From Nemertoderma westbladi (Eukaryota > Animalia > Xenacoelomorpha), in NCBI GenBank assembly GCA_032718475.1, contig JAUCBJ010008389.1, positions 103,568-167,567 on the forward strand: a DNA stretch of 64,000 bases, in the 5' to 3' direction. Made by a program: the position numbers and the translations under genes. Of this stretch, positions 1,910 through 61,800 are shown piece by piece; positions within the stretch are counted from its first letter, which is position 1, and every line of letters starts with the position of its first letter. Below the pieces are notes generated by a model. It saw only the letters and a list, made by a program, of their open reading frames with translations, was not told where the DNA came from and searched no databases.

Positions 1910-2326
1910 ATCAATAAAAATAATGAAACTGACTCATTTTTAAAACTATATGGCAGTGTGGGCCATCCCAATAAAAAGAAACGCCGCGAACAGCGTCGAG
2001 TTTATTTCAAAGTTGGCGATAAAGTGCGTCTGAGTTTAACCGCGACGCCATTTTCCAAAGGATATACACCTAACTATACCCGGGAAATTTTCGAAATTTC
2101 TAGAATACGGATGGATCGAGAGCCGTACCCTATGTACGAAGTTATGGATGTGAATAGGCGTGTTATTAAAGGGACATTTTATCAATATGAAATGAAAAAG
2201 TTGAAAGAACCGTTTGAGTTCTTACCAATTGAAAAAGTAATCAAGGAAAAAGTAATAAACAAAAAAAACAGGGAAAAAACAATACCTGGTAAAATTCGTT
2301 GGTTATGCGAAGCACCGGTGGGTTGA
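1910..2326 (+). pseudogene. Polinton/Maverick retroviral-like integrase, C-terminal part only
   Basis: FKVGDKVRLS...FSKGYTPNYTREIFEI...PYPMYEVMD...IKGTFYQYEMK matches the Maverick integrase C-terminal pattern (F.VGD.VR...F.KGY...EIF...Y...D...I.G.FY..EL). The catalytic DDE core is replaced by the inverted arm. Confidence 0.85.
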
Positions 2327-2338
2327 TAGGATACAATA

Positions 2339-3192: not shown

Positions 3193-3199
3193 ACAGGAA

Positions 3200-38509: not shown

Positions 38510-39050
38510 TGTTAGCTTATTCAATCCCGCCAACACCCCATAAAGTTATAAGCCGATAAGCAATATTGGGAGCCACGAGATTGGGCAATTAACCAACTCG
38601 TGCCATCCCAATAAGAGTGGGAAGGAAGCACACAATAGAGGGTCAGGGGCCAAACCCCTAACCCAGGGAGAACAGGTGGAGTGAACGGGAATACTCCACG
38701 GGGCGCCAACAAGGGTATTAACCAATCAGAGGGGGGGAATGGCATCGATTGAGTAGCAGTAAGGCCACCGTGCAATATAACCAATAACCTATTAATCAGT
38801 GATTCAGTTATCTCAGTGCAGCAGTGCTAGCGTAGGGTACAGTCAATTAGTTTAGTTAGGGGATCACGGGACTTTAGTTACCGTATCCCGCCTTGTACAC
38901 ATTATATCTATATCTATATCCTATGCCCTATTATTATTATACACCGAACTTCAGAACTCAGTCACTCTATTTCACCCTTATACACGGCGGGGACGCGTGG
39001 ACTAAATTACCACATCGGATAAATCGGGATCCCTCCTGGATCCCGTCACA
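38510..39050 (+). repeat. 5' LTR of element 2
   Basis: Direct repeat of 51459-51999. TATA-like AATATAA at 38774 and TCAGT initiator-like motifs at about 38796-38817. Confidence 0.96.
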
Positions 39051-39130
39051 GTAACTAAATCCGAGCTGCCGCCCCAGTTAAACTCTGAGAACTACACTGC
39101 TAGCTAGTCGAACTCCACCGAGCAGACGAG

Positions 39131-42100
39131 ATGAGTGAATCGGGCGAGACACCGCCGCGGACCCCGGACGAAGATCAAACGATCCGCGAGGCCGCGACCA
39201 AGCGATACAGGCCCACAACACCGGAGCCATCGATAACGGGCGAACCGGAAGTCCAGAACGAGGAGAGCCTGGAACCCGAAGTCGAGCCGAGAGAGAAAGA
39301 GAGCGAGATGGCGGGAGATGGAGATGAGTCGACACGGAACGGAGAACGGCGCGCCGATGTCGCCGGCCAGCTACCGGCCGAGGGCGACGAGCGGCCCACC
39401 GAAACGGTGGGGCCGACGGTGCGACGCCGGACGCGAAGAGACGGAGGAGAGATTGGTACCGATGTCGCCGGCCAGCTACAGGCCGAGGGCGACGGACGGC
39501 CCACCGGAACGGCGACGGTGGAGCCGCCGGTACGACGTCGAACCCGGAGGGACGGAGGAGAGGTCGGCGACGAGGACGTCGGGGTTTCAGAGCGACTTCG
39601 ACGAGCCTACATCGCGGCCCGGAGGATGATAAAGGACGCCAAGAAGGAAGGGGCGAAGGTAGACGAGGTGAGACTGAGAAAGCGACTAGGTGAGTCGGAT
39701 AGACACTTTAATTATCTAATACGTTTTGGGCAGAGAGAACTAGCCGAAACGAGAGCACATGAAATTGCCGGGGAACTGTTTGAACTATGGGAATGTGGGA
39801 GTATGGAACCTAGCGTAGCGTCAGTGTACATAGGGCCATACTTGGTCGATGCCCGGGGAGTAAAACCAGCGGGTTGGAAGGGACTCGAAGGGGGCGAATC
39901 CGAGGTTAACCCCGAGGATTCGGCCTCGTCGGTCGGAGAAAGCTCCGGGAAGCGGGGGAAAATCAGTAGGTCGGGAAGGCGGGGGAAATCCGTCGTAACC
40001 GATAAGTCTGTTACATCCTCCGCGAAAGGAAGAGCGGTGAGAGAGATAGGTGCCGAATATCGTCTCAGCATGGCAGAGAAAGATCATAGAGAAATGAAGG
40101 AACGGCTAGAGGAAGGGAGAGTGCGGTTAGAGAGGGAAACGGCATTGCTTAAAGAAACAGGAGAGAGGGCCGAAAGGGCTTTGAAAAGCCTAAGGGAGTA
40201 TGATGAGATAGAGGAAAGGGAGTGTAGGGAGCGTGAGGCGAGAGGGGAAAAGGAACGCAAGGAGCGTGAGGCGGAACGCAAGGAGCGTGAGGCGAGAGGG
40301 GAAAAGGAACGCAAGGAGCGTGAGGCGAGAGAGGAAAGGGAACGCAAGGAGCGTGAGGCAAGGGAGGAAAGGGAACGCAAGGAGCGTGAGGCGGAACGCA
40401 AGGAGCGTGAGGCGAGAGAGGAAAAGGAACGCAAGGAGCGCGAAATGAGACGAAGGGAGAGTATTAAGAGCGCTGCAGAGTCGGCCATTAGGGACACCCA
40501 GGAGCGTGAGAGGAGAGTGGCAGAGACTGAGGGAGAGAACAAGAAAATAGAGAGACTACAGAGTGAGTCTGCGGGAGATGAGATTAAACGGGCGCACGAG
40601 TTGCAACTCGTGCGAACAGCGCCGTCTGAAAGCGGGGCCGGCTCGAGTATTTTTAGGGAGCCGGGGGCCGTAGATACATTTATTAATACCCCACTGACAG
40701 GGACCGCACGACAGACTCAAGACTGGTGCGACCGTACGGGCGGGGGGGGTAATAATAATAATGGTACAGTAGACGTTGTTAATATTGATAATACCGTATG
40801 GGACAACACTAATCAAACCTTTATTACAGGTAATGCTTTACATAGTGGTAGTAATTTAAATTTAAATCAGAACGCCCCTAGTATTAATGTAGGAAATAAC
40901 TCTAATATTAATGTAGCTACGCAAAATAATTCAAATAATCAAAATAATAACCCAGATTCGAATCTACAAAATAATTTAAATAACGCAATTACGCAAAACA
41001 ATTCGAATAATTTAAATAATGACCTATGCCCGAATTTACAAAATAATTCAGATAACGTAGTCGTGCAGAATAATATAAATAACTTTGTTCCAAACGAACA
41101 AAATAATTCCGTTTCCAATATGGGTGCTATTAATGTAAACGCGTCGGGCCTGCATAACCAGGAAACAGAGGGCCTGGTAGGCCACGTAGTTAGTAGACAG
41201 GGAGCAGAGGGCCTGGTAGGCCACGTAGTTAGTAGACAGGAAGCAGAGGGCCTGGTAGGCCACGTAGTTGGTAGGGAGGGAGTAGAGGGCCTGGTAGGCC
41301 ACGCAATAGCAGAGGGAGAGGCGGGGGTGAATGGACCCGACCGCAGTAGGGTTGATGTGTCGACTAGAGAGGTATATAATAGCGGGGAGAGAGGTAGCGA
41401 AGTTAGATGTAGCGAGTGGGGGGGGGGGGGGGCTACGAGGACCCCACGACAGAGAGTTAGCGGCGAGAGGGGGGGGGGGGGGGCAAGGAGTGTCCCACAG
41501 CCGTCAGCGGATAATGCGAGGGCCGATATAGGTAAACCGCAACGACCGGCGACGGAAAGTAATAGGGGGATCGCGAGTATCCCCAGCGGCGTGCGACCGA
41601 GCAGAGAGAGACAGGTTGACGTCGCGAGAGGGCGGACGAAGCGTCGAGCCCGATCAGAGGAGGGAAGAAGAACAGTGGGGTTTAACTGGGACCAGACAGG
41701 GGAAACTATACAGCACCCGTCGAATCCATTGGAAGCGCAGGCGATAGGGATGGCCACGTTGATCGATGCTTTGAAAACGAGGATCGAGTTACCACCCGTG
41801 GAACCATTCAAGTTCGACGGGAGTAGGCCGGAAGAATATTTACAATTTCGGCGAATGTATAGTAACGAAATACTAACAAAAAACTTGACGCAGGCGGAGT
41901 GCCTAAAGTATCTACAAGTGTACACGGGAGGCCCAGCATACGATATCGTGAGGCAATACCAAGGAATAGAGGGCGGCTTCACGACAGCATGGCGGGCACT
42001 GGATAGGGAATACGGGCACCCGGCCAAGATCATCAGGCAGACGCTGAGAGGCATAACATCGGGTGGCCTACAGGACAACCCCGTTAGCATTAAGACGTTT

Positions 42101-43735
42101 GCTAACAAAGTCGAAAAGGCGCTAATCGTACTGAAGACGCTAGACGCGCCGTACGAGCTCAATGCGTCCAACAACATCACCACGATAGCGCAGGCACTAC
42201 CGAACTGGCTGCGCAACAAGTGGAGAAAAATCGCCTTCTCCACTCGAGATAAGAAGGGTGCGGAACCAGGTTTAGAAGAAATGTCAAACTTCTTAAATTA
42301 CGAGGCTGAACTAATAACGGACCCAGTCTATAGTGAAGATAGCCTGGGAAAGGGACCAAAGACAGATCACTACAGGCCGAAACCAGAGCACAATACATCA
42401 AACGCATTGCCGAGGCTCAGGCAATCATTGCCATACGCAGCGACGCAGGGGACTGCAAGTCCACAGGCAAACGGAGATAAGACAACATCATGGAACGGAC
42501 AGGGGAACAATAACAACATGAATAAACATAACCCCAGTACGTCCAGTAGGCCAAATCCAGTCAATAAGAATAGTAGGGACTTTGGTACGAACATAACTGC
42601 GATACGCAATGCATTGTATAAAGAGGGCTACGACCCAAAGAGCAAATGCCAGTTACACGCAAATGCGCTTCATAAAACCATGAACTGCAGGTACTGGCAG
42701 GCGCTACCGAGGCAAGACCAGATAGATTACGCGTCGAGCAATAAAATCTGCTCGCGATGTGTGAAGAGTGGACACAAGGCCAGGGAGTGCCAAGAGAAGC
42801 CGGTCAAGTTTGGCCAAAGGAGAGGCCAAACGATGGCAACGAGCACGGTAGGGGCGAAGAAGAGAGGCACGGTGTTACTTGGAGTAGTACCGGTGCGAGT
42901 GATCGGGGAAGGCAATCGATCAGTAACAACATTAATGCTGGTTGATAGTGGAGCTGCCATCACATTAGTCGAGGAATGGGTAGCCGAAGAAATAGGATTG
43001 AGAACAAGGCCAAGCAGAATGGCGGTAACAACCATCTCTAGCAAAGATGAGATCCTAGAGATGAGGACAGGACGGTGCGCAATTGCAGCAGTAGCACCAG
43101 GATGCGATTATGGGGCAACCATCGACCCCATCCAAGTAATAGAGTCAATTAACATCAATGCCAGGCGGCCAACCAACATCGAGGTCGAGCAATACAAATT
43201 CCTGGACAACATTGACTTCTCGATCCCAGACGTGGACGTTAGGAAGGTATCCATCATAGTAGGAATGGACTGCCCGACGGCCCACGAAAGAATGCAAACG
43301 GTCTTCGGCGAAGACAAGCAGAGCGACCCGGTGGCTATATTAACACCATTCGGGTGGACGCTGAGTGGTCCAATTAAGAGCAAGATACCATTCAGGATGT
43401 CGGAGACATCAGGATGCATGTTCGCGGGAACAATGCAGGAAATGGGTGATGAGGGAGCAGAGGAGCAGCTTAAAAGACTGCTCAGACAAGACTTTGAGGG
43501 ACTGAAAGAGACCGGGGTCGGGACCTCGGTAGAAGACAAACAGGCTCTACAAAGCGTGGAGGAATCGATGACGTGTGATGAGGGGCGGTATACAATAGGA
43601 ATGGTATGGAAACTACCGAAGATACCGCTACCCGATAATAGGGGGATGGTACTCACGAGACTTCGTAAGCTGAAACAAACACTAAAACGGAGCCCCGAGA
43701 AGAACGAGTACATTCACAAAACCATTAAGAAGTAG
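39131..43735 (+). CDS. Bel/Pao Gag-protease and start of pol (1534 aa), ending at an in-frame TAG
   Basis: Gag core PFKFDGSRPEEY...LKYLQVYTGG; knuckles CQLH...HKTMNC and CSRCVKSGHKAREC; protease LVDSGA...IIVGMD...TPFGWTLSG. Confidence 0.92.
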   Translation: MSESGETPPRTPDEDQTIREAATKRYRPTTPEPSITGEPEVQNEESLEPEVEPREKESEMAGDGDESTRNGERRADVAGQLPAEGDERPTETVGPTVRRRTRRDGGEIGTDVAGQLQAEGDGRPTGTATVEPPVRRRTRRDGGEVGDEDVGVSERLRRAYIAARRMIKDAKKEGAKVDEVRLRKRLGESDRHFNYLIRFGQRELAETRAHEIAGELFELWECGSMEPSVASVYIGPYLVDARGVKPAGWKGLEGGESEVNPEDSASSVGESSGKRGKISRSGRRGKSVVTDKSVTSSAKGRAVREIGAEYRLSMAEKDHREMKERLEEGRVRLERETALLKETGERAERALKSLREYDEIEERECREREARGEKERKEREAERKEREARGEKERKEREAREERERKEREAREERERKEREAERKEREAREEKERKEREMRRRESIKSAAESAIRDTQERERRVAETEGENKKIERLQSESAGDEIKRAHELQLVRTAPSESGAGSSIFREPGAVDTFINTPLTGTARQTQDWCDRTGGGGNNNNGTVDVVNIDNTVWDNTNQTFITGNALHSGSNLNLNQNAPSINVGNNSNINVATQNNSNNQNNNPDSNLQNNLNNAITQNNSNNLNNDLCPNLQNNSDNVVVQNNINNFVPNEQNNSVSNMGAINVNASGLHNQETEGLVGHVVSRQGAEGLVGHVVSRQEAEGLVGHVVGREGVEGLVGHAIAEGEAGVNGPDRSRVDVSTREVYNSGERGSEVRCSEWGGGGATRTPRQRVSGERGGGGARSVPQPSADNARADIGKPQRPATESNRGIASIPSGVRPSRERQVDVARGRTKRRARSEEGRRTVGFNWDQTGETIQHPSNPLEAQAIGMATLIDALKTRIELPPVEPFKFDGSRPEEYLQFRRMYSNEILTKNLTQAECLKYLQVYTGGPAYDIVRQYQGIEGGFTTAWRALDREYGHPAKIIRQTLRGITSGGLQDNPVSIKTFANKVEKALIVLKTLDAPYELNASNNITTIAQALPNWLRNKWRKIAFSTRDKKGAEPGLEEMSNFLNYEAELITDPVYSEDSLGKGPKTDHYRPKPEHNTSNALPRLRQSLPYAATQGTASPQANGDKTTSWNGQGNNNNMNKHNPSTSSRPNPVNKNSRDFGTNITAIRNALYKEGYDPKSKCQLHANALHKTMNCRYWQALPRQDQIDYASSNKICSRCVKSGHKARECQEKPVKFGQRRGQTMATSTVGAKKRGTVLLGVVPVRVIGEGNRSVTTLMLVDSGAAITLVEEWVAEEIGLRTRPSRMAVTTISSKDEILEMRTGRCAIAAVAPGCDYGATIDPIQVIESININARRPTNIEVEQYKFLDNIDFSIPDVDVRKVSIIVGMDCPTAHERMQTVFGEDKQSDPVAILTPFGWTLSGPIKSKIPFRMSETSGCMFAGTMQEMGDEGAEEQLKRLLRQDFEGLKETGVGTSVEDKQALQSVEESMTCDEGRYTIGMVWKLPKIPLPDNRGMVLTRLRKLKQTLKRSPEKNEYIHKTIKK

Positions 43736-46700
43736 GTCGAGAAAGGATGGGCCGTGGAGTTACCGGTCGACGAGCCGAACACGGACAGGACATACTACCT
43801 GCCACTCCACGTAGCATTAGACCCAAAGAAAGGTAAACTGAGGATGGTAGTCGATGCATCGGCAAAGACCGACAGAAAATGCTTAAACGATTACCTGTTG
43901 GAAGGCCCAAATATTTACAATTCGGGCATAGAAGTACTACTTAGATTTAGGAATGGGAAACACGCCTTCACGTGTGACATAGAAGGCATGTTCAACCAGG
44001 TCCGTGTAACGGAAGAAGACAGTGACAGTCAACGCTTCTTATGGTATAACGGCGAAGAAGAACCGCCGATAATACCAGCGTATAAGATGGTAGTACAAAA
44101 CATGGGGGCCAAGTCGTCCTCATTTACGACGACTATGGCAGTGAGAGACACGGTAAAGGGGAAGGAAGATAGATACAGCAGTAGGGCCGTCGATATGATC
44201 CGACGCGGCTTCTACGTAGACGACGGTATGGAGTCTGGAAATACGGTTGAGGAGATACTGGAAACAGGGCGCGAGGTTCGCGACATCCTGAAAGGATCCG
44301 GCTTCAACCTGACCAAATTCCAATCCAGTTCAGAAGAATTTGTCAAGGCAATAGAGGACAAGAAACCAGAATCGACCATGGACAACCCTACAACAGCCAA
44401 AGGACAGGACATGGCAAATAAGAGAACACAATCGCAGCAAAAGGCATTGGGAATCGTGTGGGATAGAGAAACAGACGAACTGAAGTATCAGCTGAGCCAA
44501 GAGGGCGCAGACACCCATACGAAGAGGGGTTATGTATCGTATATAGCAAGGATATACGATCCCCTAGGCCTAGCATCCCCATTACTAGTCACGGGGAAAC
44601 AGATACTCAAGAGAGTATATAAATTGAAGGATGAGTGGGACGTAGAGGTACCAGAAGACATCAAGAAACAGTGGAGCAGATGGACAGGAGACCTGGAAAG
44701 AATGGGAACATACAACATGCCGCGAGTGTATTTTCCGGACGGGAACATGAAAAGTCTGGACCTACATATGTTCTCCGACGCGTCGTTGGAGGCATACGGA
44801 GCGGCACTCTATTTAGTACAACGAGAGGGGGCTCACAAGCCCAGACTAGCCTTTAGCAAAGCTAAGTCAACGCCGCCAGATTCAGCATCTGTTCCCAAGT
44901 TAGAATTGACAGCTGCGAGACTAGGAGTTAGAGCCACAGCCTACCTAGTGGATACTATTCCCAACATAGTGGAGACACACTACTGGACGGACTCCATGGT
45001 AGTGCTTGGTTGGCTACACAACGAAAAGACGAGATACCCAATATTCGTCGCGAATAGAGTGGACGAAATAAGGGCGAGCACAGAACTGGAAAGGTGGCAC
45101 TACTGCCCAACAGACGAGAACCCAGCGGACTTGCTGTCGAGGGGCGTGGAACGCCACACTTTCTTAAAGAAGGAAGTATTGTGGCAACATGGGCCACAAT
45201 TTCTGAGCGATAAAGAGGCCTGGCCGCCAATGAGAAAGGTGGAGCCGGGCTCAGAAGTGGTGTCAGAGGGAGAAGAGGGAGACTCGGAGGGAGAAGAGAT
45301 ATACTCCCAGATGGTGAGGGAGATTAGGGACGTGCAACCAAAGCAAGAACTACGCGATAACCCGACGGACAAACTCCTCAGCTATAGTTCTAGTTGGTAC
45401 AAGACCAAGAAACTAGTGGCGTACTGGAGAGCCTTCGGGAATTTCCTCGCGGGAGTTAATAAGGAGAAGAAAACCAGGGAAACCATAGATCTGGAAGGAG
45501 CGGCCAAGGCAATAATCCGCTATGAACAACGGAAGAACTACGGCGACGAGGTGGAACGTGTCGGCAACCAACAGCACCTCCGACGGGACAGCGAGTTGAT
45601 TACGCTGTCGCCACAACTCAACGAGGATGGGATTCTAGTAATGAATTCTAGGGTGGGATATAACAACAGTATAGTCGTGCCACCGAAACCCATCATCATT
45701 CCCACAGGATCGCCTATAGTCCACCAGATCATATGGGACTCCCACAAATCGATACTGCATGGGGGCACCAACCGAACCCTCACAGAGATAAGGAGGACCT
45801 ATTGGGTCAAACAATTAAGGAAGAAGGTTAAAGCGGTAGTGGGGCAGTGCCAGACCTGCCGACGAGCGAAGAAGGAACGAGCCGTACAGGAGATGGCGCC
45901 ACTACCGGCGAGTAGGGTAAGACAGCACGACCCGCCATTTACGCATTGCGGTGTGGACATGTTCGGGCCGATAAAGATCAAGGTGATGCGACACACGGAG
46001 AAACGCTACGGTATTATCTTCGTATGCAACAATACACGGGCGGTAGGGATAGAACTCGCCCAAGATGCAACCGCATCAGCATTCATTAACGCCTTAGAAA
46101 GGTTTAGGGACCGCAAAGGTGGGACGATCGCAGTGATATACAGCGACAATGGCACCAACTTTGTGGGCGCAGAGAGTGAGATGGCAGAGGCCTTGGAAAT
46201 CTTAGAAGGAGAAGAAGTCAGGGCAGCCATGAGAAGACGACAAGTAAGGTGGGAAAGAAGGACGCCGTATGCACCACATACACTAGGATGCGTCGAGAGA
46301 CTGGTGGGCAGTTCAAAGCGTCTAATGACGAAGTTAATGAACACCCACATGGTCACTGAAGACGTCTTACGGACAGTACTTGCGAAGTGCGAGGGGATCA
46401 TTAATAGCAGACCGCTATACCCGGAGAATGATGACCCTGAGTCATTAGACGTGCTGACGCCTAGCCATTTTCTGATGGAAAGGCCAGCGACCATCGATAT
46501 GCGGGGTGTAGACCCAGATGACATACACTCCCGCCAAAGTTGGAAAGTCGCTAAAGCAATAAGCGCAGAGTATTGGAGGAGGTGGGTCGAGGAATACCTA
46601 CCCACGCTCCATAAGCGAAGCAAGTGGAGGAAGCCGAACAGGGAGTTAAGAGAGGGAGATCTCGTAATCGTCACGGATGATACTATCATCAACAACCAGT

Positions 46701-46852
46701 GGCGGTTGGCGAGAGTCGTAGGCACCTACTCCGACGAGGACGGAAGAGTCCGATCGGTAGAAGTGCGGATAGGTGGAAAGATAGGTGCGAAAGACAGAAA
46801 AACCTACAGGAGAGCAGTAGGTAAATGCTGTCTTCTAGAAGGGGCACCTTAA
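43736..46852 (+). CDS. Bel/Pao Pol: reverse transcriptase, RNase H, integrase (same frame as the upstream ORF)
   Basis: YYLPLH...LRMVVDASAK; DIEGMFNQV; FYVDD; FSDAS; PKLEL; NPADLLSRG; HGG...CQTC; GVDMFGP; SDNGTNF; ERLVG; LREGDLV...WRLARV. Confidence 0.95.
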   Translation, partial: VEKGWAVELPVDEPNTDRTYYLPLHVALDPKKGKLRMVVDASAKTDRKCLNDYLLEGPNIYNSGIEVLLRFRNGKHAFTCDIEGMFNQVRVTEEDSDSQRFLWYNGEEEPPIIPAYKMVVQNMGAKSSSFTTTMAVRDTVKGKEDRYSSRAVDMIRRGFYVDDGMESGNTVEEILETGREVRDILKGSGFNLTKFQSSSEEFVKAIEDKKPESTMDNPTTAKGQDMANKRTQSQQKALGIVWDRETDELKYQLSQEGADTHTKRGYVSYIARIYDPLGLASPLLVTGKQILKRVYKLKDEWDVEVPEDIKKQWSRWTGDLERMGTYNMPRVYFPDGNMKSLDLHMFSDASLEAYGAALYLVQREGAHKPRLAFSKAKSTPPDSASVPKLELTAARLGVRATAYLVDTIPNIVETHYWTDSMVVLGWLHNEKTRYPIFVANRVDEIRASTELERWHYCPTDENPADLLSRGVERHTFLKKEVLWQHGPQFLSDKEAWPPMRKVEPGSEVVSEGEEGDSEGEEIYSQMVREIRDVQPKQELRDNPTDKLLSYSSSWYKTKKLVAYWRAFGNFLAGVNKEKKTRETIDLEGAAKAIIRYEQRKNYGDEVERVGNQQHLRRDSELITLSPQLNEDGILVMNSRVGYNNSIVVPPKPIIIPTGSPIVHQIIWDSHKSILHGGTNRTLTEIRRTYWVKQLRKKVKAVVGQCQTCRRAKKERAVQEMAPLPASRVRQHDPPFTHCGVDMFGPIKIKVMRHTEKRYGIIFVCNNTRAVGIELAQDATASAFINALERFRDRKGGTIAVIYSDNGTNFVGAESEMAEALEILEGEEVRAAMRRRQVRWERRTPYAPHTLGCVERLVGSSKRLMTKLMNTHMVTEDVLRTVLAKCEGIINSRPLYPENDDPESLDVLTPSHFLMERPATIDMRGVDPDDIHSRQSWKVAKAISAEYWRRWVEEYLPTLHKRSKWRKPNRELREGDLVIVTDDTIINNQWRLARVVGTYSDEDGRVRSVEVRIGGKIGAKDRKTYRRAVGKCCLLEGAP

Positions 46853-46959
46853 AATGGAGTTAGAGTGGAGTTTAGTCGTCCAAGCTTTGGACTGAGGGGG
46901 GTGGGATTGAGGGCGAGACGCCCTTCCCACACAAATAAAATAAAAATAAAATAAAAATA

Positions 46960-47705
46960 ATAGTTAATTAGTTAGTAGGTACGTAGTACCTAGAGTTAGT
47001 TAGTTAGTTAGTAGGTACGTGGTACCTAGAGTTAGTTAGTTAGTTAGTAGGTACGTAGTACCTAGAGTTAGTTAGTTAGTAGGTACGTAGTGCCTAGAGT
47101 TAGAGAGTTAGTAGGTACGTAGTACCTAGAGTTAGAGGGTTAATAGGTACGTAGTACCTAGAGTTAGTTAGTTAGTTAGTAGGTACGTAGTACCTAGAGT
47201 TAGTTAGTTAGTTAGTAGGTACGTAGTACCTAGAGTTAGTTAGTTAGTTAGTAGGTACGTAGTACCTAGAGTTAGAGTTAGAGTTAGAGGGTACATAGTA
47301 CCGATAGTTAGAGAGTTAGTAGGTACGTAGTACCTAGTTAGAGTTAGAGTTAGAGTTAGAGGGTACGTAGTACCGATAGTTAGAGTTAGTAGGTACGTAG
47401 TACCTAGTTAGAGTTAGTAGGTACGTAGTACCTAGTTAGAGTTAGAGTTAGAGGGTACGTAGTACCGATAGTTAGAGAGTTAGTAGGTACGTAGTACCTA
47501 GTTAGAGTTCGAGTTAGAGTTAGAGGGTACGTAGTACCGATAGTTAGAGAGTTAGTAGGTACGTAGTACCTAGTTAGAGTTAGAGTTAGAGGGTACGTAG
47601 TACCGATAGTTAGAGTTAGTAGGTATGTAGTACCTAGTTAGAGTTAGAGTTAGTAGGTACGTAGTACCGTTAATTAGAGTTAGAGGGTACGTAGTACCAT
47701 TAGTT
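46960..47705. repeat. Array of about 22 short hairpin units with (GTTA)/(GAGTTA) linkers between pol and ORF3
   Basis: Core TAGGTAC-GTA-GTACCTA (7-bp stem, 3-nt loop) and a variant GGTAC-GTA-GTACC. Confidence 0.93.
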
Positions 47706-48203
47706 AGAGAGAGAGAGTGAGAGGTAAAAGGGGGTAAATAGGATATAGATATTAGTTAGTAGTAAGTAGAGTTAATAGCGAGAGGGGGGCATATGAGTAC
47801 AGCTGGATAAATCGTGCGGCCACACGACGCATACTGCTGTACTGCATGGGCCCACAGAGTAGGCCAGAATATGGATCAGAGAATAGAATAAATCCATAGG
47901 CAGTAGTAGGTAGTAGGACAGTAGGATCAAAACAAACAAATAAATAGAATAGGGCTAAAAATCGGAAAATAGTGGCAACACAAGGAAAGTCGTTCTAGAA
48001 CATAATAAAAGTAACGGACGGAAATTGTAAATTAGGCTGATTTACTAGCTCCGAAATTAATTAGGATAAATTTAGGCTAAAAGGTGCAATTAAGTAGAAA
48101 GTAGGCCATTATCGAACTGTACGAAACATCTTAAATACTTCACTCATCTGTATTGCGCCTTGGTAAGGCACCACCCTGCAGGTGAGCGAGTGTAGTGTTC
48201 GGA

Positions 48204-50738
48204 ATGGCGAGTAAGCTGATCAGGAAGAGAAAGGCGGAGTCAGGAGGAAAAGAAATACTGGTGGATTTCACCGAAAGACACCCGGAGGAGAAGACGAGAG
48301 GATACTACGAGAAGTTGGAAAGGGGTCACGCGGCACGAGCGCTGCAGGACCACTTCCGGGAGATGCACGAGCAGCGGCTGGTCGGGACCTACGGAACGCC
48401 GTCGCTGGACAACGCGATCTTCCAACACTTCCACTACGTGGTGAAAGGAGACGAGGCGAAGTTCGGGATTCCGAAGTATCCGAGGGAATCGCCGAGGAAG
48501 GACTGGAAAAGATTCATAGAGTCCGTCAACAGAGGAGGATATATGATCCTAGATGACGAGGGAACCGTGGAAGACGAAGCGGGTTCGAGACGAGGAACGG
48601 CAGGGTCGGCCAGGACCATACTCTTGCATTTGGCCGCGCCAAATGGGGACATCTTCTTATTCGACCTAGGGACGTATGGGAAGAGGGATGGGCCGAAATT
48701 AGACCGATTGCCGAAAGCGGTACAAGTATTAGTAAGAGAGAAGTCGACGACGAAAGTGGGATCGGCGATTCGCGAGGACGCGGAGAGGATCATTGGTCCG
48801 GACGCCACCAACCTCCTGGATATGCAGAAAGTCTTTATGGCTATGACGGCACCGGATGGATTGGGGGTGGTCGAGAACACAGGCCAATGCGGGGCGGTGG
48901 CGATGGGCCAATTATTGGGGCTCGTATGTCACAAACCGATGGACTGGGGAAAGTTTAGGGAAGAATACGGAGCAGAACTAGCGAACTTGCTGAAGTGGGG
49001 AGCGAGACCGGGAAAGCAGGAGGTATATCAGTTTCGCAGAGGAGCGATAAAGGTATATCAGAAGCGATATATCCTGCAGGAGGACTGGATGATGATAAGT
49101 TTGCTTAACTTATTCATGACCGTAGTTATCGAAAGGGAACCAGGGGCATTTCTGTTATCGGGATCACCCCTAAGCTACAGGAGAGCCTTTAAGACGGCCT
49201 TTGACGGTCTGGTAGACCACCCGGGGCTGAAGGGCGAGTCGGTGTACTACAACAGCCGACATCTGGTAGACGGGGAGACGGATACACCGTATCAGAGATG
49301 GGAGCAGCTAGAGGCGGACAGACGAGAAGCAAAGCGACTGGAAGAAGTCGCTAGACGGGAGAGGATAGAAGCAGAGGAGAGGGAAGAGGAGGCCGGGGCA
49401 CAGAGTTACGGCTTCGAGGAACAGGCGGGCCTAGACGAACTTCATTGGACTTCGTCAGGGAGTTCGGGGGAGTCTCTAGGGCGAGAATTGGGATGGACGG
49501 TGGGATCGCCGAAACAGTCGACGTCGGGGTTGCAAACGATGCCCATACCAGCGGGCGCCGAGGGCGACCAACCGCCAAGGAAGCTAAGGGAGCTAGAGGG
49601 ATGGAGAGCTACGGGCGAGAGCCAAGGCGGGAAGGGACATAGTGGATCCATCGGGATACCGGGGTTGGAAACACTACCAGAAGAGGAAGACGGCGACGAC
49701 GAGTTCGGAGAGATGCCGCCCATCGAGAGGATAGGCCACTCGGACACGGACTGGGTTGGCGGAAGGGTGGTGACAGCCAGTGGGGCGAGGGCCTTCTGGA
49801 ACAGATCCGGCAAGCGGACCTGGGTGCACGAGGAGCCAGCGATGGATTTCGCGGGGAGCACCATCAGGTTGGGCGAGCAACCGGGGACGGCACCACGGAT
49901 AGTATTCGGGGAGACGATGCCCGAGAGGGGCGGAGAGATCGACGTAAACAGGGAGAGCAATGTAGAGAAGTTCGCCTACCAGCGACTCCATAGACCGCGG
50001 AGATCGCTTGGGACGAAAGATGAGGTGGGACGGGAGACATTGGTACTCGGCTGCGACTACTGTGGGAGACAGACCCATCAAGAAAGCAGCTGCCTATACC
50101 GGTTCCAACGGGGGACCTTTTGTCTCTACTGTAGAGAACCAAGTCACAGGATGGGGGCGTGTCCACGGTTGCATAACCGATGTCCAAAGTGCCACTTTCG
50201 GGGACACTACGGACGCGAGTGCGACTGGATGAACGACGAGGAGAAGTTCACGAGGTTCGAGGAGTGGGCCGACGTCGGGGCCATGACGCGCCAGCGCATG
50301 AAGGCCCAAGAGTTCAAGTGGGGTTTCTTCCTCATAAACCAGGAGACCCACATGGAAATCATAAAGCGAAGGTTACCGTTTACCTATCAAGAGGTAGCAA
50401 CGGCGGCGTCGTTCGCCGGAGTTATGAACACGCAACGGTACCTGGACAGGTGGACACCAGAGAACCGGAGGGAGTTTAGGGATTTCTTGGCGGAACACGT
50501 ACCAAAGGCAATGAAAATGATCCTATGGGACGCCACACGAGGGAGACAACCAGGCCATTCTGAGGGGCCACCGGCGAAGCGGTATCGGGCATTAATAACA
50601 CCAGCGCCCAAGGAGCCGACGACCGGGATCAGCAAGGAAGTGGCGGCGAAGGTCCGGAAGCAGAAAGCGGATGATGCCAGAGGAGCGGTGATAACCAAGA
50701 AACGGGCCAGGGAAGAGGACGTGAGGAGGAACAGATAG
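48204..50738 (+). CDS. ORF3: DEDDy-like (RNase D/WRN/EXD/Mut-7 family) 3'-5' exonuclease plus three CCHC zinc knuckles
   Basis: ExoI ILDDEG; LLHLAAPNGDIFLFD; LPKAVQVLVREKSTTKVGSAIRED (ExoII); NLLDMQ; QKRYILQED (ExoIII-like). Knuckles CDYCGRQTHQESSC, CLYCREPSHRMGAC, CPKCHFRGHYGREC. First ATG at 48204. Confidence 0.8.
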   Translation: MASKLIRKRKAESGGKEILVDFTERHPEEKTRGYYEKLERGHAARALQDHFREMHEQRLVGTYGTPSLDNAIFQHFHYVVKGDEAKFGIPKYPRESPRKDWKRFIESVNRGGYMILDDEGTVEDEAGSRRGTAGSARTILLHLAAPNGDIFLFDLGTYGKRDGPKLDRLPKAVQVLVREKSTTKVGSAIREDAERIIGPDATNLLDMQKVFMAMTAPDGLGVVENTGQCGAVAMGQLLGLVCHKPMDWGKFREEYGAELANLLKWGARPGKQEVYQFRRGAIKVYQKRYILQEDWMMISLLNLFMTVVIEREPGAFLLSGSPLSYRRAFKTAFDGLVDHPGLKGESVYYNSRHLVDGETDTPYQRWEQLEADRREAKRLEEVARRERIEAEEREEEAGAQSYGFEEQAGLDELHWTSSGSSGESLGRELGWTVGSPKQSTSGLQTMPIPAGAEGDQPPRKLRELEGWRATGESQGGKGHSGSIGIPGLETLPEEEDGDDEFGEMPPIERIGHSDTDWVGGRVVTASGARAFWNRSGKRTWVHEEPAMDFAGSTIRLGEQPGTAPRIVFGETMPERGGEIDVNRESNVEKFAYQRLHRPRRSLGTKDEVGRETLVLGCDYCGRQTHQESSCLYRFQRGTFCLYCREPSHRMGACPRLHNRCPKCHFRGHYGRECDWMNDEEKFTRFEEWADVGAMTRQRMKAQEFKWGFFLINQETHMEIIKRRLPFTYQEVATAASFAGVMNTQRYLDRWTPENRREFRDFLAEHVPKAMKMILWDATRGRQPGHSEGPPAKRYRALITPAPKEPTTGISKEVAAKVRKQKADDARGAVITKKRAREEDVRRNR

Positions 50739-51458
50739 GTTCCCAGAGACGAGGGAACGAGGGAGTGAGACTGAGACTGGAAAGTGGTGCGCCTGGAAGG
50801 CGCCGCATGGAACGTACGAACTATTAAATACAAACTTAATTAATGCAAATAACATATAAGTGCAATTTGTATGTACGTACGTAGTGATTAGCAGTAAAAC
50901 ACACGATCGGAGTAAGTACTATAGTCATACAACCTTTCTCAATTAGCTACTGGGACTGGGGGATAACTGACTATGGCACTATGGACGAGACAACTGACAA
51001 TTTCACGCTTCTTGAGTGCGACGGCACGAGAGGGGGGGGGGAGGTTCGTCAGGAGAGCTAAAATAGTCAAAGTGGAGTTGAGGATCGGAGTAAGAGTGCG
51101 AAGTGCGGAGAGAGTGCGAACGCAATTCTAGTGTGGGGGGGGGGGGGGGAGAATGAGAGGCTGAGTGAGGGACGAGGAGGTCCGGGGGTATGAGAGAGTT
51201 AGGGTGAGAGTGAAGGTGAGATAGGGCGAAAATGTTGGGGAAACAAAAGTCGCGTGAAGAGGTGAGCGCGATCGGCCCGACATGAGACGCCAGGCACACA
51301 GGGTAGCGTTATCATACCCATAGGGGGCGGCCTGGAAAGCCGACCCCGGGAGAAAAGAATTCCACCCCACACCCGATACTAGATCGGGATCCAGCGGGAT
51401 TGTAACGCACTTTTTGGTTGATGCTATCTTCTTACCGGGAAGATAGCATGGGGGGGAG

Positions 51459-51999
51459 TGTTAGCTTATTCAATCCCGCCAACACCCCATAAAGTTATAA
51501 GCCGATAAGCAATATTGGGAGCCACGAGATTGGGCAATTAACCAACTCGTGCCATCCCAATAAGAGTGGGAAGGAAGCACACAATAGAGGGTCAGGGGCC
51601 AAACCCCTAACCCAGGGAGAACAGGTGGAGTGAACGGGAATACTCCACGGGGCGCCAACAAGGGTATTAACCAATCAGAGGGGGGGAATGGCATCGATTG
51701 AGTAGCAGTAAGGCCACCGTGCAATATAACCAATAACCTATTAATCAGTGATTCAGTTATCTCAGTGCAGCAGTGCTAGCGTAGGGTACAGTCAATTAGT
51801 TTAGTTAGGGGATCACGGGACTTTAGTTACCGTATCCCGCCTTGTACACATTATATCTATATCTATATCCTATGCCCTATTATTATTATACACCGAACTT
51901 CAGAACTCAGTCACTCTATTTCACCCTTATACACGGCGGGGACGCGTGGACTAAATTACCACATCGGATAAATCGGGATCCCTCCTGGATCCCGTCACA
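51459..51999 (+). repeat. 3' LTR of element 2
   Basis: Appears identical to 38510-39050. Confidence 0.96.
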
Positions 52000-53421
52000 A
52001 GAAGTTTGCTTACCAGCGGCTCCATAGACCGAGGAGGTCACTTGGGGCAAAGGACGACTTGGGGCGGGACGCATTGGTACGAGTCACAGGATGGGGGCGT
52101 GTCCACAGTTGCACAACCGGTGTTCTAAGTGCAACTTCCGGGGGCACTACGGACGCCAGTGCGACTGGATGGACGACGAGGAGAAGTTTAAGATCTTCGA
52201 GGAGTGGGCCGATGTCGGCGTCATGACGCGGCAGCGAATGAAGGCCAAGGAATTCCGGTGGGGTTTCTTTAATATTAACCAGGAGGCCCACCTGGAAATC
52301 ATCAAACGGAGACTTCCGTTTACTTATCAAGAAGTATCAACAGCGTCATCGTATGCTGGAGTGATGAATACACAGAGGTATTTAGATAGATGGGCGCCCG
52401 AGAACCGGGGAGAGTTCAGAGATTTCCTGGCGGAAAATGTGCCACGGGCCATGAAGGTGATCTTATGGGACGCCACTAGGGGAAAGCAGCAGGCGAAGCG
52501 AAGCGATACCGGGAGCTAATAACACCAGCGCCCAAGGAATCGACCACGGGAATCACTAGGGAAGTAACGGCAAGGATGAGGAACCTTAAGGAGGACAAGA
52601 GCAAGGGAGCGGCGACAACCAGGAAGCGACCGAGACAGGACGACGACAGAGGGAAGGAACTGAGATAGTTCCCAAAGGCAGGAGGAGCGAACTAGAACTT
52701 GGAGGGGGTATGTGGGGATGCCTGGGAAGGCACCACATGCGAAGTAATACGAACTTCTAAGTGCAAATTTAATAAAAGTGCAATTAGTATGTACGTATGT
52801 AGTAATCAATAGAATATAATCATATAATCAATATCCAATATAATCAAAGTAAGTAGTATAGTCATGTAACCTTTTCCAACTAGCTACTGGGACTGGGGTC
52901 CAATTGACTATAACAGGACGAGACACTAGACGATCACACTTCTTGAGTGCGACGGCGCGAAAGGGGAGGGTGAGGTTCGTCAGGAGTGAGTGGAGCGGAA
53001 CGAGTAGGGGTTGAGTACAGGAACGCAGGGGAGATAGTGAGAGGTGGTGTTGACGCATGTGGAGAGAATACGGGTGCAATTCAAATGGGGGGGGGGGGGG
53101 GGGGGTAAGAGGCAGAGTGAGGGACAAAGAGGTCCAAAAGTAGAGAGAAGTTAGAGTCAGTTTAGAGTAGAGTGGAGATTTAAAATTGTGTGAGAAGAGT
53201 CCACAATTGTCTCGAACCGAGACGCCAGATGTATTGGTGCGACATAGGTTGGGTTGCACCAAAAGGGGTGTAGTAACATCATCCCCAGAGGGAGCGGCCT
53301 GGAAAGAAACTCCAAGAAAAGAACTCCACCCCACACCCGATAGTAGATCGGGTTCCAGCGGAATTGAAGCGCACTTATGGGTGATGCTATCTTCTCACCG
53401 GGAAGATAGCATGGGGGGGAG

Positions 53422-54031
53422 TGTAAGCGGATTCAGTTCCGCTGCATTACCCTCATAAATGGGAAGTGGCACATTTTCAGTAATATGTCGGAGGTACGAG
53501 ATTGGTAATAACCAATCTCGTATCACAACCAATAACGGGGACAACACAAACCCCAAAGCCACACAAAGGGAGGTTAGAGGTCAAACCACCTCGGAAGGGA
53601 AAATAACCAACAGGGGGGGAAGCACTCCCAAAGAGGTGAGAGGCGTGAAGTAGGTTATCAGCCAATATGAGCGGGGGAGAGCATCCACTGGACAAAGGCC
53701 ACAATAGTGTAGAAATGATTACATATATATTGTCAATGTATAACATTACCGGCTCAGTTACTCAGTCATCAGTTCAGTGCAGACCGGTGATATTCTATAC
53801 CATCACCGTCACCAATACATATATTTACCGGTACAGCATCCATCATATATCAATGCTGCCTAACTGTAACTCTTACTGTGCTATCACACATGTATTCATT
53901 ATCCGAATATCAAGAAACATCAATTAACTCTTATCGTTTTACTGCAACGGCCTCGGCCTAGGTATCACCCAAAGGTAAACACGGTGACGCGTAATAGACA
54001 AATCCGGTCGGGATCCCTTGATCCCGTCACA
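53422..54031 (+). repeat. 3' LTR of element 3 (610 bp)
   Basis: Follows the PPT GGGGGGGAG; TG...CA ends; shares the terminal GATCCCGTCACA with the element 2 LTR. Confidence 0.85.
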
Positions 54032-58800: not shown

Positions 58801-61800
58801 GATTTGAACAATGAAAGAAAGAAAGAATAGTTTATTAGAATAGCTTATTTATTACATAATACTGTAAGCAATTAATTTTATTATTATTATATTTCACCTT
58901 TTATTAAATTTAATTAATTTAAATTAAATTGTATTTTAGGCCTATTAAATATCTATAGCCATAACATTGAATATTACTAATTAGGCCTATATGATATTAT
59001 TATTATCTGGAATAATTATTATTAATTTCAATAATATTATTATTCTGAAAATTCTGCTGATAAGTTTGTCTTGTAAGTCGCAACATGAGTAGCAAGCGAT
59101 CCTGGCAACCAGATGGGTCGTATGGTGACTTGCGTGCTATGTTCGGCAAGTCGACTAAGCGACAGACTACATTGAGTGAGACATCGACGCTGTCCGCTCC
59201 GTCCCTGCCATTGTCCCGTGCGACCACGACCAGTCCACTCCTGGCAGCCTTGCCCATTGTCGACCGCAATGACATCGGTTTTGCGGTCGAAATGCGTGTC
59301 GATGGGAAACTAGACGCCATGGAACGGCAGCGTTTCTTAAATAACAGCTGGGTGCCGCCGGCTGACTACGAATTCCCGAAGATCATGAAGCAGGACAAAT
59401 CCCGTCCCAATGGTATCCGACCGCGCTTCCTCTCCCGCTGCCACCTTACGGGCCAGTTTGACTGCTTTGCTTATTCAGCCAAACTTCAAGGAGTCTTTTG
59501 CAAGTTAGTTTGATTCGTTGATGGTAAATACATGGTGCACGAGAAGTTTCTTTGCTTTGTGCATCTCAGGTCATGTACAGGCGCTGCTGTGGCTGAGTCA
59601 CTTATGAAGACTGTGAAACAGCTGGGTATTACCGCTCAGATGGTGGCACAAGGGTATGATGAAGCGTCGACCATGTCGGGTCAGTTTAAAGGTGTCCAAT
59701 CACTGATTAGGGAAAAGCACGGACAGACCCTCGCCATCTATGTGCACTGTGCAGCGCACAGCCTGAACTTGGCTGTACAGGAGGCCTGTGAGTTGCAGTC
59801 AATCCGCGCAGCTGCGACTGCAATAAATTCGGTTGCAGTATTTTTCAATGTCTCGCCGAAGCGAAGAGCAGTGCTGGAAGAGAAAATCAAGGAAATTCTG
59901 CCGCCAGGAACTGTAACTCAGGTGCTGCAGTTCTGCCGCACACGCTGGGTTGAGAAACAGGAAGCTGTAATACGCTTCAACCTCCTCTTCCCGGCAATTG
60001 TCGAAGCATTAGAGGAGATCAGCATGTGGGGCGGTGATTGTGGCAGCAATGCCCGTAATTATTCCAAGCTGCTCGAGGACAGCGAGTATGTCCTTGCTGG
60101 ACACATCCTGGAGTCTGTTCTAACTATAACCAAACCATTGTCGGAGAAACTGCAAGCCATAGACATCGACCTGGTGGAGTGCATGATACATGTTGATACT
60201 GTGGTCAAGGTTTTAAAAGACATGCGGGCTGACTCCACGCGGTTCGACAAATTGTTTGATGCTGCGGAGAAGGCACTCGGAGAACCACTACAGAAGCCAC
60301 GCATAAAGGCGAAGCAACGCAATATGCATCGCGCAAATCCGGATGTCTCCACAGCTCGTGACCACTTCCGAATCGCAATGTATATTCCATTTCTGGAAGG
60401 AGCTGTTGCACTGATAGAGGAGCGCTTCAGCAAGATCACGAAGCAGGCTCTGCTGATGGCGTCGCTGCTTCCGAGCCATGTCGTTGACAACACTTTTGAT
60501 GACATCAAAGAGTGTGTTGACTTTTACTTAGGTGGCGAGTTGCGTGGTCTGGGGTTGTCCACGGACATTGAGGCTGAGCTGCTGCTGTGGAAGAAGCGGT
60601 GGGAGTCTGTGGATGCCGGGGACCGACCACGCACTGTCCTGAGCACCCTTGCCAGCGTGAAGGTCAGCCTGAGCTGCTTCCCCAACATCAGGCTGCTGCT
60701 CAAGGTCTTGGCAACAGTGCCTGTTTCAACCGCAACAGCTGAGAAATATAAATGTCAAAAATATAAATGTATTAATTATAGTAAAACACTAAAATATTGA
60801 AAAGTTTAATTGGCCGTTCGGAATTCCCAAAGTTAAGTTGTTATAATGTAACAAAATTTCGTACATCATTTTATTATAGGTGCACTATTCAACATTAAAG
60901 ACCCTTGTTTATTTATGTAGACCTCCCTCGCTGCGTACTTTTGGTACATAAATACTCGTTTATTTTGTAAACCTCCCTCGCTATACTCCCTAGGTACATA
61001 AATGCACTCGGGTCATAACGCTTGAATAGTTATTGTTCACCAATTTGTATTATTACTTGTTATAGCTCGCAAATGTAAACTAAACCATAACGCGTTTTAA
61101 TGAAGTTACATTTTTATATGTTATATAATTAATAATTATTTGCAAAGTAGAAATTGATGCGATTTTGTATTTCCAGTAGATACACTTAATAATTGATTTT
61201 GTAATAATTATTTTGTTCACTAATTTTAATATTTTTAATTACTTTTAATTATTGCTAAAAAAATATATGTATGTATCATATTGTATATTGATCTAAACTA
61301 TAATTACTTGTAAAAAGGGGGGGGGGGGGGGGGGGGGGGGACTGGACGCAATAAAAATTCATCAATCTCAAAGAAAATATTAATACTTATTAGGGTCATT
61401 CTCAACAAAAGTGGCCAAAACCGACTTAGAAATTGTCCGGAACGTAATTTCTGTTTAGATTGGTGAATTTTTAAACGGTAAAATGTTTTATATATGAAAC
61501 TTGGCCTGAAAATTCTGCTCATCATGTTTTCAGGGTTGAAAAATCCCTGCATATTACCATATTTCTCTGTCAAACGCTAAAAAATAGCATTTTTAACACT
61601 TGTTTAAAGAATTTGCATAACATTTAGAGAGCAGTAGAATGACCCCATTATGGTCCTTGGTGTACAAACTATATATCATTCGGAAGCTTGAAAATTTTCC
61701 TACATTCTCAGATTAGTTTTTGGAGGATACAAATACTTCCGTTCCAGTAACAGCATAAAATATTATTAAATTTCAATATGACCCCTGTAATGTCCCAAAT

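Follow-up and report, generated by a model that had tools for sequence, protein, structure and literature searches.

A third gene, ORF3, under purifying selection as judged from substitution patterns, was found in the env position of a Bel/Pao retrotransposon from Nemertoderma westbladi. Its predicted product joins a WRN/EXD2/Mut-7-type DEDDy exonuclease domain to three CCHC zinc knuckles. We tentatively regard ORF3 as a conserved accessory gene that may counteract host silencing by degrading or trimming RNA. The analyzed window comprises 64,000 nt (assembly GCA_032718475.1, contig JAUCBJ010008389.1, positions 103,568-167,567 of the forward strand); all coordinates refer to this window and all features lie on its + strand.

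The element is bounded by two identical 541-bp LTRs with TG...CA ends (38510-39050 and 51459-51999) and by a 5-bp target-site duplication (38505-38509, repeated at 52000-52004); a polypurine tract (51450-51458) precedes the 3' LTR. One frame contains gag, protease, and the start of reverse transcriptase (39131-43735) and, further on, the rest of pol with reverse transcriptase, RNase H as well as integrase (43736-46852). The Bel/Pao affiliation given in the original prediction was confirmed with Bel/Pao-specific Pfam models, on which the assignment is based: DUF1759 (8.7e-11) and Asp_protease_2 in the first part are followed in order by RVT_1 (weak), Peptidase_A17 (3e-40), Integrase_H2C2, rve, and DUF5641 (3e-24). 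The PR-RT-RH-IN order and the LTR length, within 0.2-1.2 kb, are those of the group. The gag and pol domains and their order, the TG...CA LTRs, and the polypurine tract are shared with Belpaoviridae (PMC8742986; PMC3118150, de la Chaux and Wagner). In contrast, members of this family measure 4.2-10 kb and use a tRNA-Arg/Gly primer site (PMC8742986), whereas the element described here measures 13.5 kb, has a non-env third gene, and showed neither primer site; the site is a described trait in the ICTV profile, and the group is classified by pol. An in-frame stop within the reverse-transcriptase region (43733-43735), overlooked earlier, breaks the gag-pol frame, and the ORF3-bearing copy is therefore non-autonomous. 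The element as such is a young, multi-copy Bel/Pao. The spacer between pol and ORF3 contains a tandem array (46961-47709) of 28-40-bp units, 22 of which have a short inverted repeat, a potential hairpin; the array joints vary in length among contigs.

ORF3 (48204-50738; 844 aa) comprises 844 open codons and a stop, in agreement with the uninterrupted frame of about 845 codons originally reported. Its start codon, the first ATG to follow an in-frame stop, has G at -3 and +4. The splice site proposed near CTGCAG (48176-48181) needs correcting: with GTGAGC directly behind it, the site is donor-like, and a simple scan for a pyrimidine-rich acceptor ahead of the ATG found none. The exonuclease-type domain (approximately aa 96-310, 48489-49133), delimited by profile alignments and a family-guided model, is followed by a charged helix-like stretch and an acidic, G/S/P/E-rich linker, recognized by composition (aa 311-612, 49134-50039). 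Next are the three knuckles (aa 617-630, 640-653, and 660-673; 50052-50222), which have the anticipated C-x2-C-x4-H-x4-C pattern and start at 50052, 50121, and 50181. Another domain (approximately aa 676-785, 50229-50558), recognized by conservation in a sister copy, had no match in family searches and is left without family assignment. The C-terminal basic tail (50559-50738) contains motifs at aa 789-795 and 832-834 that are kept in the sister copy, and an additional basic motif is located near the N-terminus (aa 7-10). We take the tail motifs to resemble nuclear-localization signals. Because of its low hydropathy (maximum 1.3 in a 19-residue window), single N-x-S/T site, and just two Cys outside the knuckles, ORF3 is not env-like; together with the basic N-terminus, these features bear out the earlier view, based on the lack of a signal peptide or transmembrane segment, that the product is not an envelope protein.

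The exonuclease domain was undetected in blind searches of Pfam, NCBIfam, PHROGs, PDB sequences, and 1.84 billion representatives. A PDB sequence search with aa 1-360 gave no match, none of the 7996 and 83 candidates scored in homologue searches (lengths 464-1477 aa) was significant, and nothing related to ORF3 was found in metagenome and viral scans or in phage and plasmid searches. The sole match in the 1.84-billion search, in which a stretch of 19 residues was counted across a 14-fold repeat, was rejected as spurious. When 41 WRN/EXD2/Mut-7-type exonuclease domains were combined into a profile that excluded the query, it matched ORF3 at aa 140-212 (HMMER, P 4e-6, which corresponds to only about E 0.1 over all Pfam). 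This local match spans the middle block only; it scored 14.1 bits, whereas the best of 5000 shuffles reached 5.9, and ORF3 was the best of the 276 window frames scanned (runner-up, 2.2 bits). The end-to-end profile alignment scored 38.9, against a mean of 9.9 and a maximum of 35.8 over 1500 shuffles, the best shuffle lying within 3 bits of ORF3, and against a maximum of 23.7 over 57 real unrelated windows. With both scores above all shuffles, the originally proposed DEDDy-type character of the N-terminal domain is supported.

The end-to-end alignment sets D117 (48552), E119 (48558), D192 (48777), Y289 (49068), and E293 (49080) on the catalytic columns, giving the motif D-E-D-E. The first four residues occupy exactly the positions where a D-x-E pair, an Asp, and a Tyr had been noted from the sequence. 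ExoI is represented by D117 and E119 on invariant columns, and ExoII by D192 on an invariant column inside the HMMER match. ExoIII had been described as Y-x3-E-D; the Tyr stands, but the column of the canonical Y-x3-D Asp is occupied by Glu293 and not by Asp294, the next residue. By these residues, the domain appears to be a variant rather than a canonical DEDDy member. The suggested WRN/EXD2/Mut-7 flavor is supported by the K-V-G-x-x-I-x-x-D ExoII block, whose K-V-G context is like that of WRN and EXD2, whereas RNase D and NrnC carry K-x-x-H. ORF3 aligns with the PF01612 subgroup of WRN-exo, EXD2, Mut-7 (Nibbler), EXD1, and Egalitarian at the ExoII motif K-x-G-x-x-I-x-x-D, at a block reading L-D-x-Q, and at a helix with Q-x-x-Y. 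The ORF3 domain differs from this subgroup in its low identity (12-22%), its position below Pfam detection, the two insertions that interrupt it before ExoIII, the last-metal Glu, and its encoding by a mobile element. A comparison by hhalign with a four-sequence alignment gave E 0.007; an RNase D/Pol I profile gave P 0.007, but its 7 sequences are too few to compare the two fairly. No Pfam match to an HRDC domain was found in ORF3.

The fold search suggested earlier gave a divided outcome. An unguided single-sequence AlphaFold model (pLDDT 32.5) was unusable, and fold searches with this low-confidence model were uninformative. A family-guided model reached pLDDT 72 and pTM 0.74, with about 90 in several core blocks, and its top fold matches were RICE1, TbRND, EXD2, Nibbler, EXD1, WRN, and Egalitarian. 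This agreement is circular: the exonuclease alignment steered the prediction, which had no control, and the model is for that reason not independent evidence but indicates only compatibility with an exonuclease fold. One might suppose that the domain is no DEDD exonuclease and that its motifs occur by chance in an accessory protein of unassigned family, as the 12-22% identity and the detection by the targeted profile alone, with no family, PDB, or homologue match in blind searches, could suggest. Against this stand two scoring schemes above every shuffle, three Exo motifs in order on the right columns, and a guided model confident in its core, and such a coincidence is very improbable. A DEDDy fold is very likely. 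Catalytic activity of the product is probable. In RICE1, a DnaQ-fold ribonuclease that is active, Glu stands in place of the last Asp (PMC5451212); this enzyme provides a weak precedent for Glu293 because its route is atypical and metal-independent.

The ORF3-bearing copy is inserted into an older sister element. The equivalent of ORF3 aa 400-589 was found to the left of the insertion (37946-38509; tblastn, 73% identity), and the rest of ORF3, the 3' UTR, the polypurine tract, and the 3' LTR to the right (52000-54031). The sister 3' LTR (53422-54031, 610 bp), preceded by the same tract, is 67% identical to the LTR of the ORF3-bearing element. Both elements share the layout ORF3-3' UTR-polypurine tract-LTR; in the ORF3-bearing copy the gene lies inside the LTRs, while the sister copy has lost its 5' end. 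In the sister ORF3, a deletion that shifts the frame affects knuckle 1 and most of knuckle 2, and a further break follows downstream; its identity to ORF3 over aa 647-782 is 84%. Values of dN/dS against the sister copy were 0.057 (aa 647-780), 0.105, and 0.196 (linker, aa 418-588) in three blocks, at dS 0.7-1.5. Among other copies, 32 of the 40 variants listed (of 114) in 48450-49150 were silent, against 33% expected; none of the 40 falls in a codon of the five catalytic residues, and indels stayed below 2% in this region (1536 and 938 contig records). By these measures ORF3 is intact and selected across copies. ORF3 could in principle be a passenger, either a recently captured, drifting fragment of a host gene or an insertion of its own with no tie to the element, and the broken pol frame of this copy would be in keeping with that. 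This view is largely refuted, and hardly credible, in the face of the low dN/dS relative to a sister with the same layout and a diverged LTR, the excess of silent variants across copies, and the lack of a flanking LTR or target duplication belonging to ORF3 itself. In runs retrieved using ORF3, where depth does not equal copy number, ORF3 and pol have similar summed contig depths. One sequencing run, RNA or possibly DNA, covers ORF3 and pol at trace depth.

DEDDy ORF3s were previously described in the Juno and Vesta LTR retrotransposons and the Athena/Terminon elements of bdelloid rotifers (Rodriguez, Kenefick, and Arkhipova 2017, PMC5408684). Of the precedents named in the original prediction, this one was borne out by that paper; the other, Cer1, was not upheld, as the paper on its CERV protein lacks the word exonuclease (PMC10309623). 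According to the rotifer paper, those genes are also non-env third ORFs 3' of pol, of DEDDy type, with one acidic position altered. By description, the carriers there are Juno/Vesta or Penelope-like and here Bel/Pao; the motif is DEED there and D-E-D-E here, and the accessible text describes neither knuckles nor a further conserved domain. Purifying selection here differs from the near-neutral within-genome variation reported in that text for sequenced env-like and GDSL ORF3s. The env-position ORF of Cer1 from C. elegans contributes to the RNA-export protein CERV (PMC10309623). CERV resembles ORF3 as a non-env ORF in the env position, with a nuclear RNA role that was shown for CERV and is presumed for ORF3; it differs in belonging to a gypsy element, in having no described exonuclease, and in its function, export of genomic RNA.

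The combination of a DEDDy exonuclease with CCHC knuckles is known from the cellular TbRND, the RNase D of Trypanosoma brucei, whose knuckles aid RNA cleavage (PMC7797062; PDB 7C42/7C45), and the claimed novelty of the fusion fails on this point, while the Bel/Pao location was indeed unreported in the literature searched. In both proteins tandem CCHC knuckles follow the DEDDy domain, and the first two knuckles align gap-free (E 0.2). TbRND, a guide-RNA trimmer, has four knuckles, a 28-residue linker, and a canonical DEDD motif, whereas ORF3 has three knuckles and a linker of about 300 residues; there is no evidence that ORF3 descends from TbRND. No report of a Bel/Pao element with a DEDDy ORF3 or with DEDDy plus CCHC was found in the literature searched, where comparable retroelement cargo appeared only for non-Bel/Pao groups, in rotifers. 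A Culex paper mentioning exoribonuclease was rejected as a precedent, the mentions concerning host genes.

The job of the protein is less certain than its predicted fold, and no observation favors silencing over the rival jobs. ORF3 may be a replication cofactor: its NC-like knuckles would carry the exonuclease, on genomic RNA, into the particle, and there it would produce a self-primer by shortening a 5' piece of the transcript of the element itself as far as the primer-site duplex, or clean or proofread cDNA 3' ends. No tRNA-type primer site, with a TGG start, was found within 90 bases after the 5' LTR. Instead, a non-tRNA-type position directly 3' of this LTR (39051-39062) pairs with an LTR segment (38869-38881), a candidate self-primer (12 bp, one bulge, -13.2 kcal/mol). 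This duplex stops right at the boundary of the LTR, and the 9-nt anchored exact match was seen in 25 of 20000 LTR shuffles. The isolated duplex is stable, although whole-leader folding did not yield this helix; a simple scan found no splice-built primer in the LTR, and priming by an internal tRNA fragment may be an alternative. The cofactor reading also draws on the knuckles, whose sequence matches to retroviral NC and TbRND knuckles are weak (E 0.045-0.4) and best with retroviral NC proteins; on the gag of this element, with two Cys/His knuckles (42647 and 42749) against three in the other Bel/Pao gag of the window; on a size exceeding the family range (PMC8742986); and on TbRND, which trims small RNA 3' ends (PMC7797062). 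However, self-pairing of this type (12/12) also marks the other Bel/Pao element of the window, which in a profile scan had no detectable exonuclease frame, though this element is defective, and the NLS-like motifs suggest the nucleus rather than a cytoplasmic particle. On balance this reading is rather unlikely. Its strongest form is more doubtful still: a Bel/Pao lineage would have independently captured a WRN/EXD2/Mut-7-type exonuclease, added an NC-like triple knuckle, and packaged the product to make a primer from its own transcript (or to proofread cDNA), needing no host tRNA.

It is likewise unlikely that ORF3 is an adaptor that binds RNA and whose nuclease is weak or dead. Comparable to Egalitarian, EXD1, or CERV, the protein would then bind unspliced genomic RNA for export or localization, perhaps at the adjoining array of 22 hairpins. 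The non-canonical fourth acid, the NLS-like motifs near the two termini, which the sister copy retains, the position of the hairpin array next to ORF3, the presence of Egalitarian and EXD1 among the close fold matches of the guided model, and the export function of the Cer1 ORF (PMC10309623) are consistent with this, as is EXD1, described in the rotifer paper as a DEDD derivative that is inactive but binds RNA (PMC5408684). In contrast, all four metal positions are acidic and the ExoIII Tyr is kept, unchanged by any of the 40 variants listed, and the array, being length-variable, could be an ordinary minisatellite.

For counter-silencing, a conserved extra gene outside the described Bel/Pao layouts (PMC8742986) fits a role in conflict with the host. 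The protein would be encoded by a separate subgenomic RNA and carried into the nucleus by the basic motifs at its two ends; the knuckles would, as in TbRND, grip single-stranded RNA and guide the 3' end of that RNA into the active site. The element would gain by degrading or trimming the RNAs that supply host small-RNA silencing; by analogy, the substrate could be antisense or precursor RNAs, fragments left by a slicer, or the 3' ends of small RNAs. That this would be the main job of ORF3 is possible, if somewhat doubtful. Rodriguez et al. allowed that such a nuclease could equally serve silencing or RNA processing, its activity being undemonstrated (PMC5408684).

Most non-env third genes of LTR retrotransposons are without an assigned function. 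ORF3 brings a second LTR superfamily into the range of nuclease cargo and, unlike the rotifer cases, comes with strong purifying selection across diverged copies. It is a single soluble-looking protein with which to ask whether animal retrotransposons encode an enzyme against small-RNA silencing or a maker of their own primer. The former, if true, would mean that an animal retrotransposon has an anti-silencing factor that is an enzyme; the latter would represent a new step in reverse transcription.

ORF3 occupies the env position of a complete Bel/Pao LTR element of 13,490 bp (38510-51999). The LTRs of this element (541 bp, TG...CA ends) are identical to each other, and the element is flanked by a 5-base target duplication and contains a polypurine tract just 5' of the 3' LTR. 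Gag and pol share a single frame and match the Bel/Pao-specific Pfam families DUF1759, Peptidase_A17, and DUF5641, with the pol order running from protease through RT and RNase H to integrase. Despite the identical LTRs, this copy carries an in-frame stop in the RT region (43733-43735). The stop likely reflects a copy mobilised in trans by the enzymes of another copy, a mutation right after insertion, or a mis-assembly. The 1.35-kb spacer between pol and ORF3 contains a 22-unit array of short inverted repeats (46961-47709), which differs in length among contigs and is possibly an RNA element or a plain minisatellite. Two Cys/His knuckles were found in gag (42647-42790), the first being C-x2-H-x4-H-x4-C, against three in the gag of a second, defective Bel/Pao element in the window.

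This second element retains a gag-like ORF (8780-13762), and most of its pol is gone. Its ends are arranged A-B ... B-A (5222-5793/17809-18380 and 5870-6620/17057-17807), with a 751-bp LTR-like repeat, whose 5' copy is apparently truncated, lying within a directly duplicated flank of 572 bp; this arrangement results from either aberrant integration or an assembly artefact. Its apparent insertion target is a set of decayed Bel/Pao pol fragments on the minus strand (3476-5508; Pfam Peptidase_A17, 6e-31). Other features of the window include a 34-bp tandem array (33733-34451) and short ORFs at 1316-3309 and 19766-21547, which we take to resemble Polinton/Maverick pieces (integrase C-terminus and minor-capsid-like protein). 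Part of these is present again, inverted, at 20257-21547, and the two ORFs scanned had no Pfam match. ORFs at 59064-60800 presumably resemble a hAT/ZMYM-type transposase; the longer one had no Pfam match at E 0.01.

In ORF3 itself (48204-50738), 844 codons are open, and the original prediction was right about where its acidic residues, Tyr, and three CCHC knuckles lie. The product has no membrane segment, carries a single potential glycosylation site, and has two Cys that do not belong to the knuckles; it is therefore not an env, as had been argued. Basic motifs, which we take to be NLS-like, are located near both the N- and C-terminal ends. After the exonuclease-like domain, about 300 low-complexity residues form an acidic linker that extends to the three knuckles. 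For the knuckles, the best matches are weak (E 0.045-0.4): NC proteins of retroviruses, and TbRND. A 110-residue domain with no family assigned lies 3' of the knuckles, inside the best-conserved block, and the C-terminal tail is basic, its basic motifs being retained in the copy of an older sister element. No splice acceptor for ORF3 passed a simple scan; the CTGCAG suggested as a splice site is followed by GTGAGC and looks more donor-like.

Blind searches for relatives or domains of ORF3 gave no match in Pfam, NCBIfam, PHROGs, PDB sequences, 1.84 billion representatives, or metagenome, viral, phage, and plasmid sets. A targeted reference profile was therefore built, seeded with four stand-alone PF01612 proteins of Bacteroidota; in the PDB, WRN, EXD2, and Mut-7 match them best. 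These seeds drew 211 relatives, 120 of them listed, and thinning at 70% identity left 41 of 124 domains. The resulting profile matches ORF3 at residues 140-212 with P 4e-6 in this targeted test, a value that would correspond to an E of about 0.1 in a search spanning all Pfam. The ORF3 N-terminus scored 14.1 bits, versus 5.9 for the top of 5000 shuffles, and ranked first of 276 window frames (runner-up, 2.2 bits). In end-to-end alignment, the catalytic core scored 38.9, versus a mean of 9.9 and a maximum of 35.8 in 1500 shuffles and a maximum of 23.7 in 57 real unrelated windows. This alignment, with which MAFFT agrees, places D117 (48552), E119 (48558), D192 (48777), and Y289 (49068) on catalytic columns and E293 (49080) on the last-Asp column; thus, the motif is D-E-D-E plus Tyr. 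The K-V-G context of ExoII is of the WRN/EXD2/Mut-7 type and differs from RNase D and NrnC, and no HRDC domain was found with Pfam.

AlphaFold gave a pLDDT of 32.5 without an alignment and 72.4 (pTM 0.74) when guided by 25 family members. Foldseek matched the guided model to RICE1, TbRND, EXD2, and Nibbler on top (12 matches, E up to 0.001), and VIA-align placed DEDDy-type chains among its first 15 matches (Z 10.5-12.2, rmsd 3.2-4.3, 154-178 residues). Being family-guided, the model is compatible with a DEDDy fold rather than independent proof of it. The proposed DEDDy assignment is thus supported by motifs and profile and amended in its last acid: the N-terminal domain is very likely DEDDy-type with a non-canonical final acid.

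ORF3 is a gene of the element and is under selection. The young element inserted within ORF3 of the older sister element, which remains at 37946-38509 and 52000-54031, has lost its 5' part, and terminates in a 3' UTR, a polypurine tract, and an LTR of its own, the LTR being 67% identical to that of the young element. Between the two ORF3 copies, dN/dS is 0.196 for residues 418-588, 0.105 for 589-614, and 0.057 for 647-780, with dS of 0.7-1.5 across the three blocks. Since the sister element lacks the N-terminal domain, selection on this domain was read from contigs of public runs. In one run, 44,579 contig records align to the 16-kb region at identities from <90% to >99%, and the family therefore has many copies. 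Variants above 2% were found at 114 places in 48450-49150. Among the 40 best-supported of these, 32 are silent (33% expected under random transitions), and the codons of D117, E119, D192, Y289, and E293 are free of variants. Indels in this interval all stay below 2% (1536 and 938 contig records).

No TGG-type primer site was found after the 5' LTR. Instead, the first 12 bases after it (39051-39062) pair, with one bulge, with LTR positions 38869-38881, stopping at the LTR boundary; the exact 9-base anchored stretch of this pairing was equalled in length in 25 of 20000 LTR shuffles. Two weaker complements to the primer position are located in the LTR (~38801-38811 and 38850-38858). This pairing is a self-priming signature, and the second Bel/Pao element has the same one as a perfect 12-base complement (6621-6632 with 17037-17048).

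The ORF3 product would be an RNA-binding 3'-5' exonuclease, likely acting in the nucleus, whose knuckles would hold the substrate as in TbRND. Its main job is, tentatively, counter-silencing, the most probable of the readings: ORF3 is dispensable family-wide yet strongly conserved here, a pattern expected of host-conflict genes. Competing closely with this is a doubtful but serious role as a cofactor of replication, serving self-priming or the cDNA ends. The self-pairing signature would suit such a role, but the second Bel/Pao element shares it with no detectable exonuclease frame, which weakens the link between priming and ORF3. Another close rival, a nuclease-poor adaptor for RNA export or localisation, appears somewhat less probable still. 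The present results fit all three roles, and the preference for counter-silencing is tentative.

DEDDy ORF3s with a DEED motif and predicted activity are described in the available text of PMC5408684 for the rotifer elements Juno, Vesta, and Terminons, and again in PMC6338049 and the available parts of PMC6431247 and PMC5718144; the motif of ORF3 is D-E-D-E in contrast. PMC6338049 also lists a DnaQ-like exonuclease among LTR-element accessory domains. The Cer1 precedent invoked earlier found no support: the available part of PMC10309623 assigns the ORF of Cer1 to CERV, a protein of export, and names no exonuclease. Nor is the fusion with knuckles unprecedented: TbRND combines DEDD with CCHC fingers, four rather than three (PMC7797062, available text). 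RICE1 resembles ORF3 in having Glu for the last Asp and is active by an atypical route (PMC5451212, available text). Only gag, pol, and env are given as Bel/Pao genes in the ICTV profile (PMC8742986) and in the available part of PMC3118150, and nothing further came from the available text of PMC12440569 and PMC3286476. In agreement with the original prediction, no Bel/Pao exonuclease ORF was found in the literature covered, most subscription journals, Repbase entries, and supplements lying outside it.

Given the rotifer precedent, the TbRND pairing, and a putative function, ORF3 is less surprising than first held: both the exonuclease-ORF3 concept and the combination of exonuclease and CCHC motifs were already known, as far as the available text of these sources goes. 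ORF3 is nevertheless real and selected, and what is new in it is the carrier superfamily (Bel/Pao), the exonuclease subgroup, and the triple knuckle.
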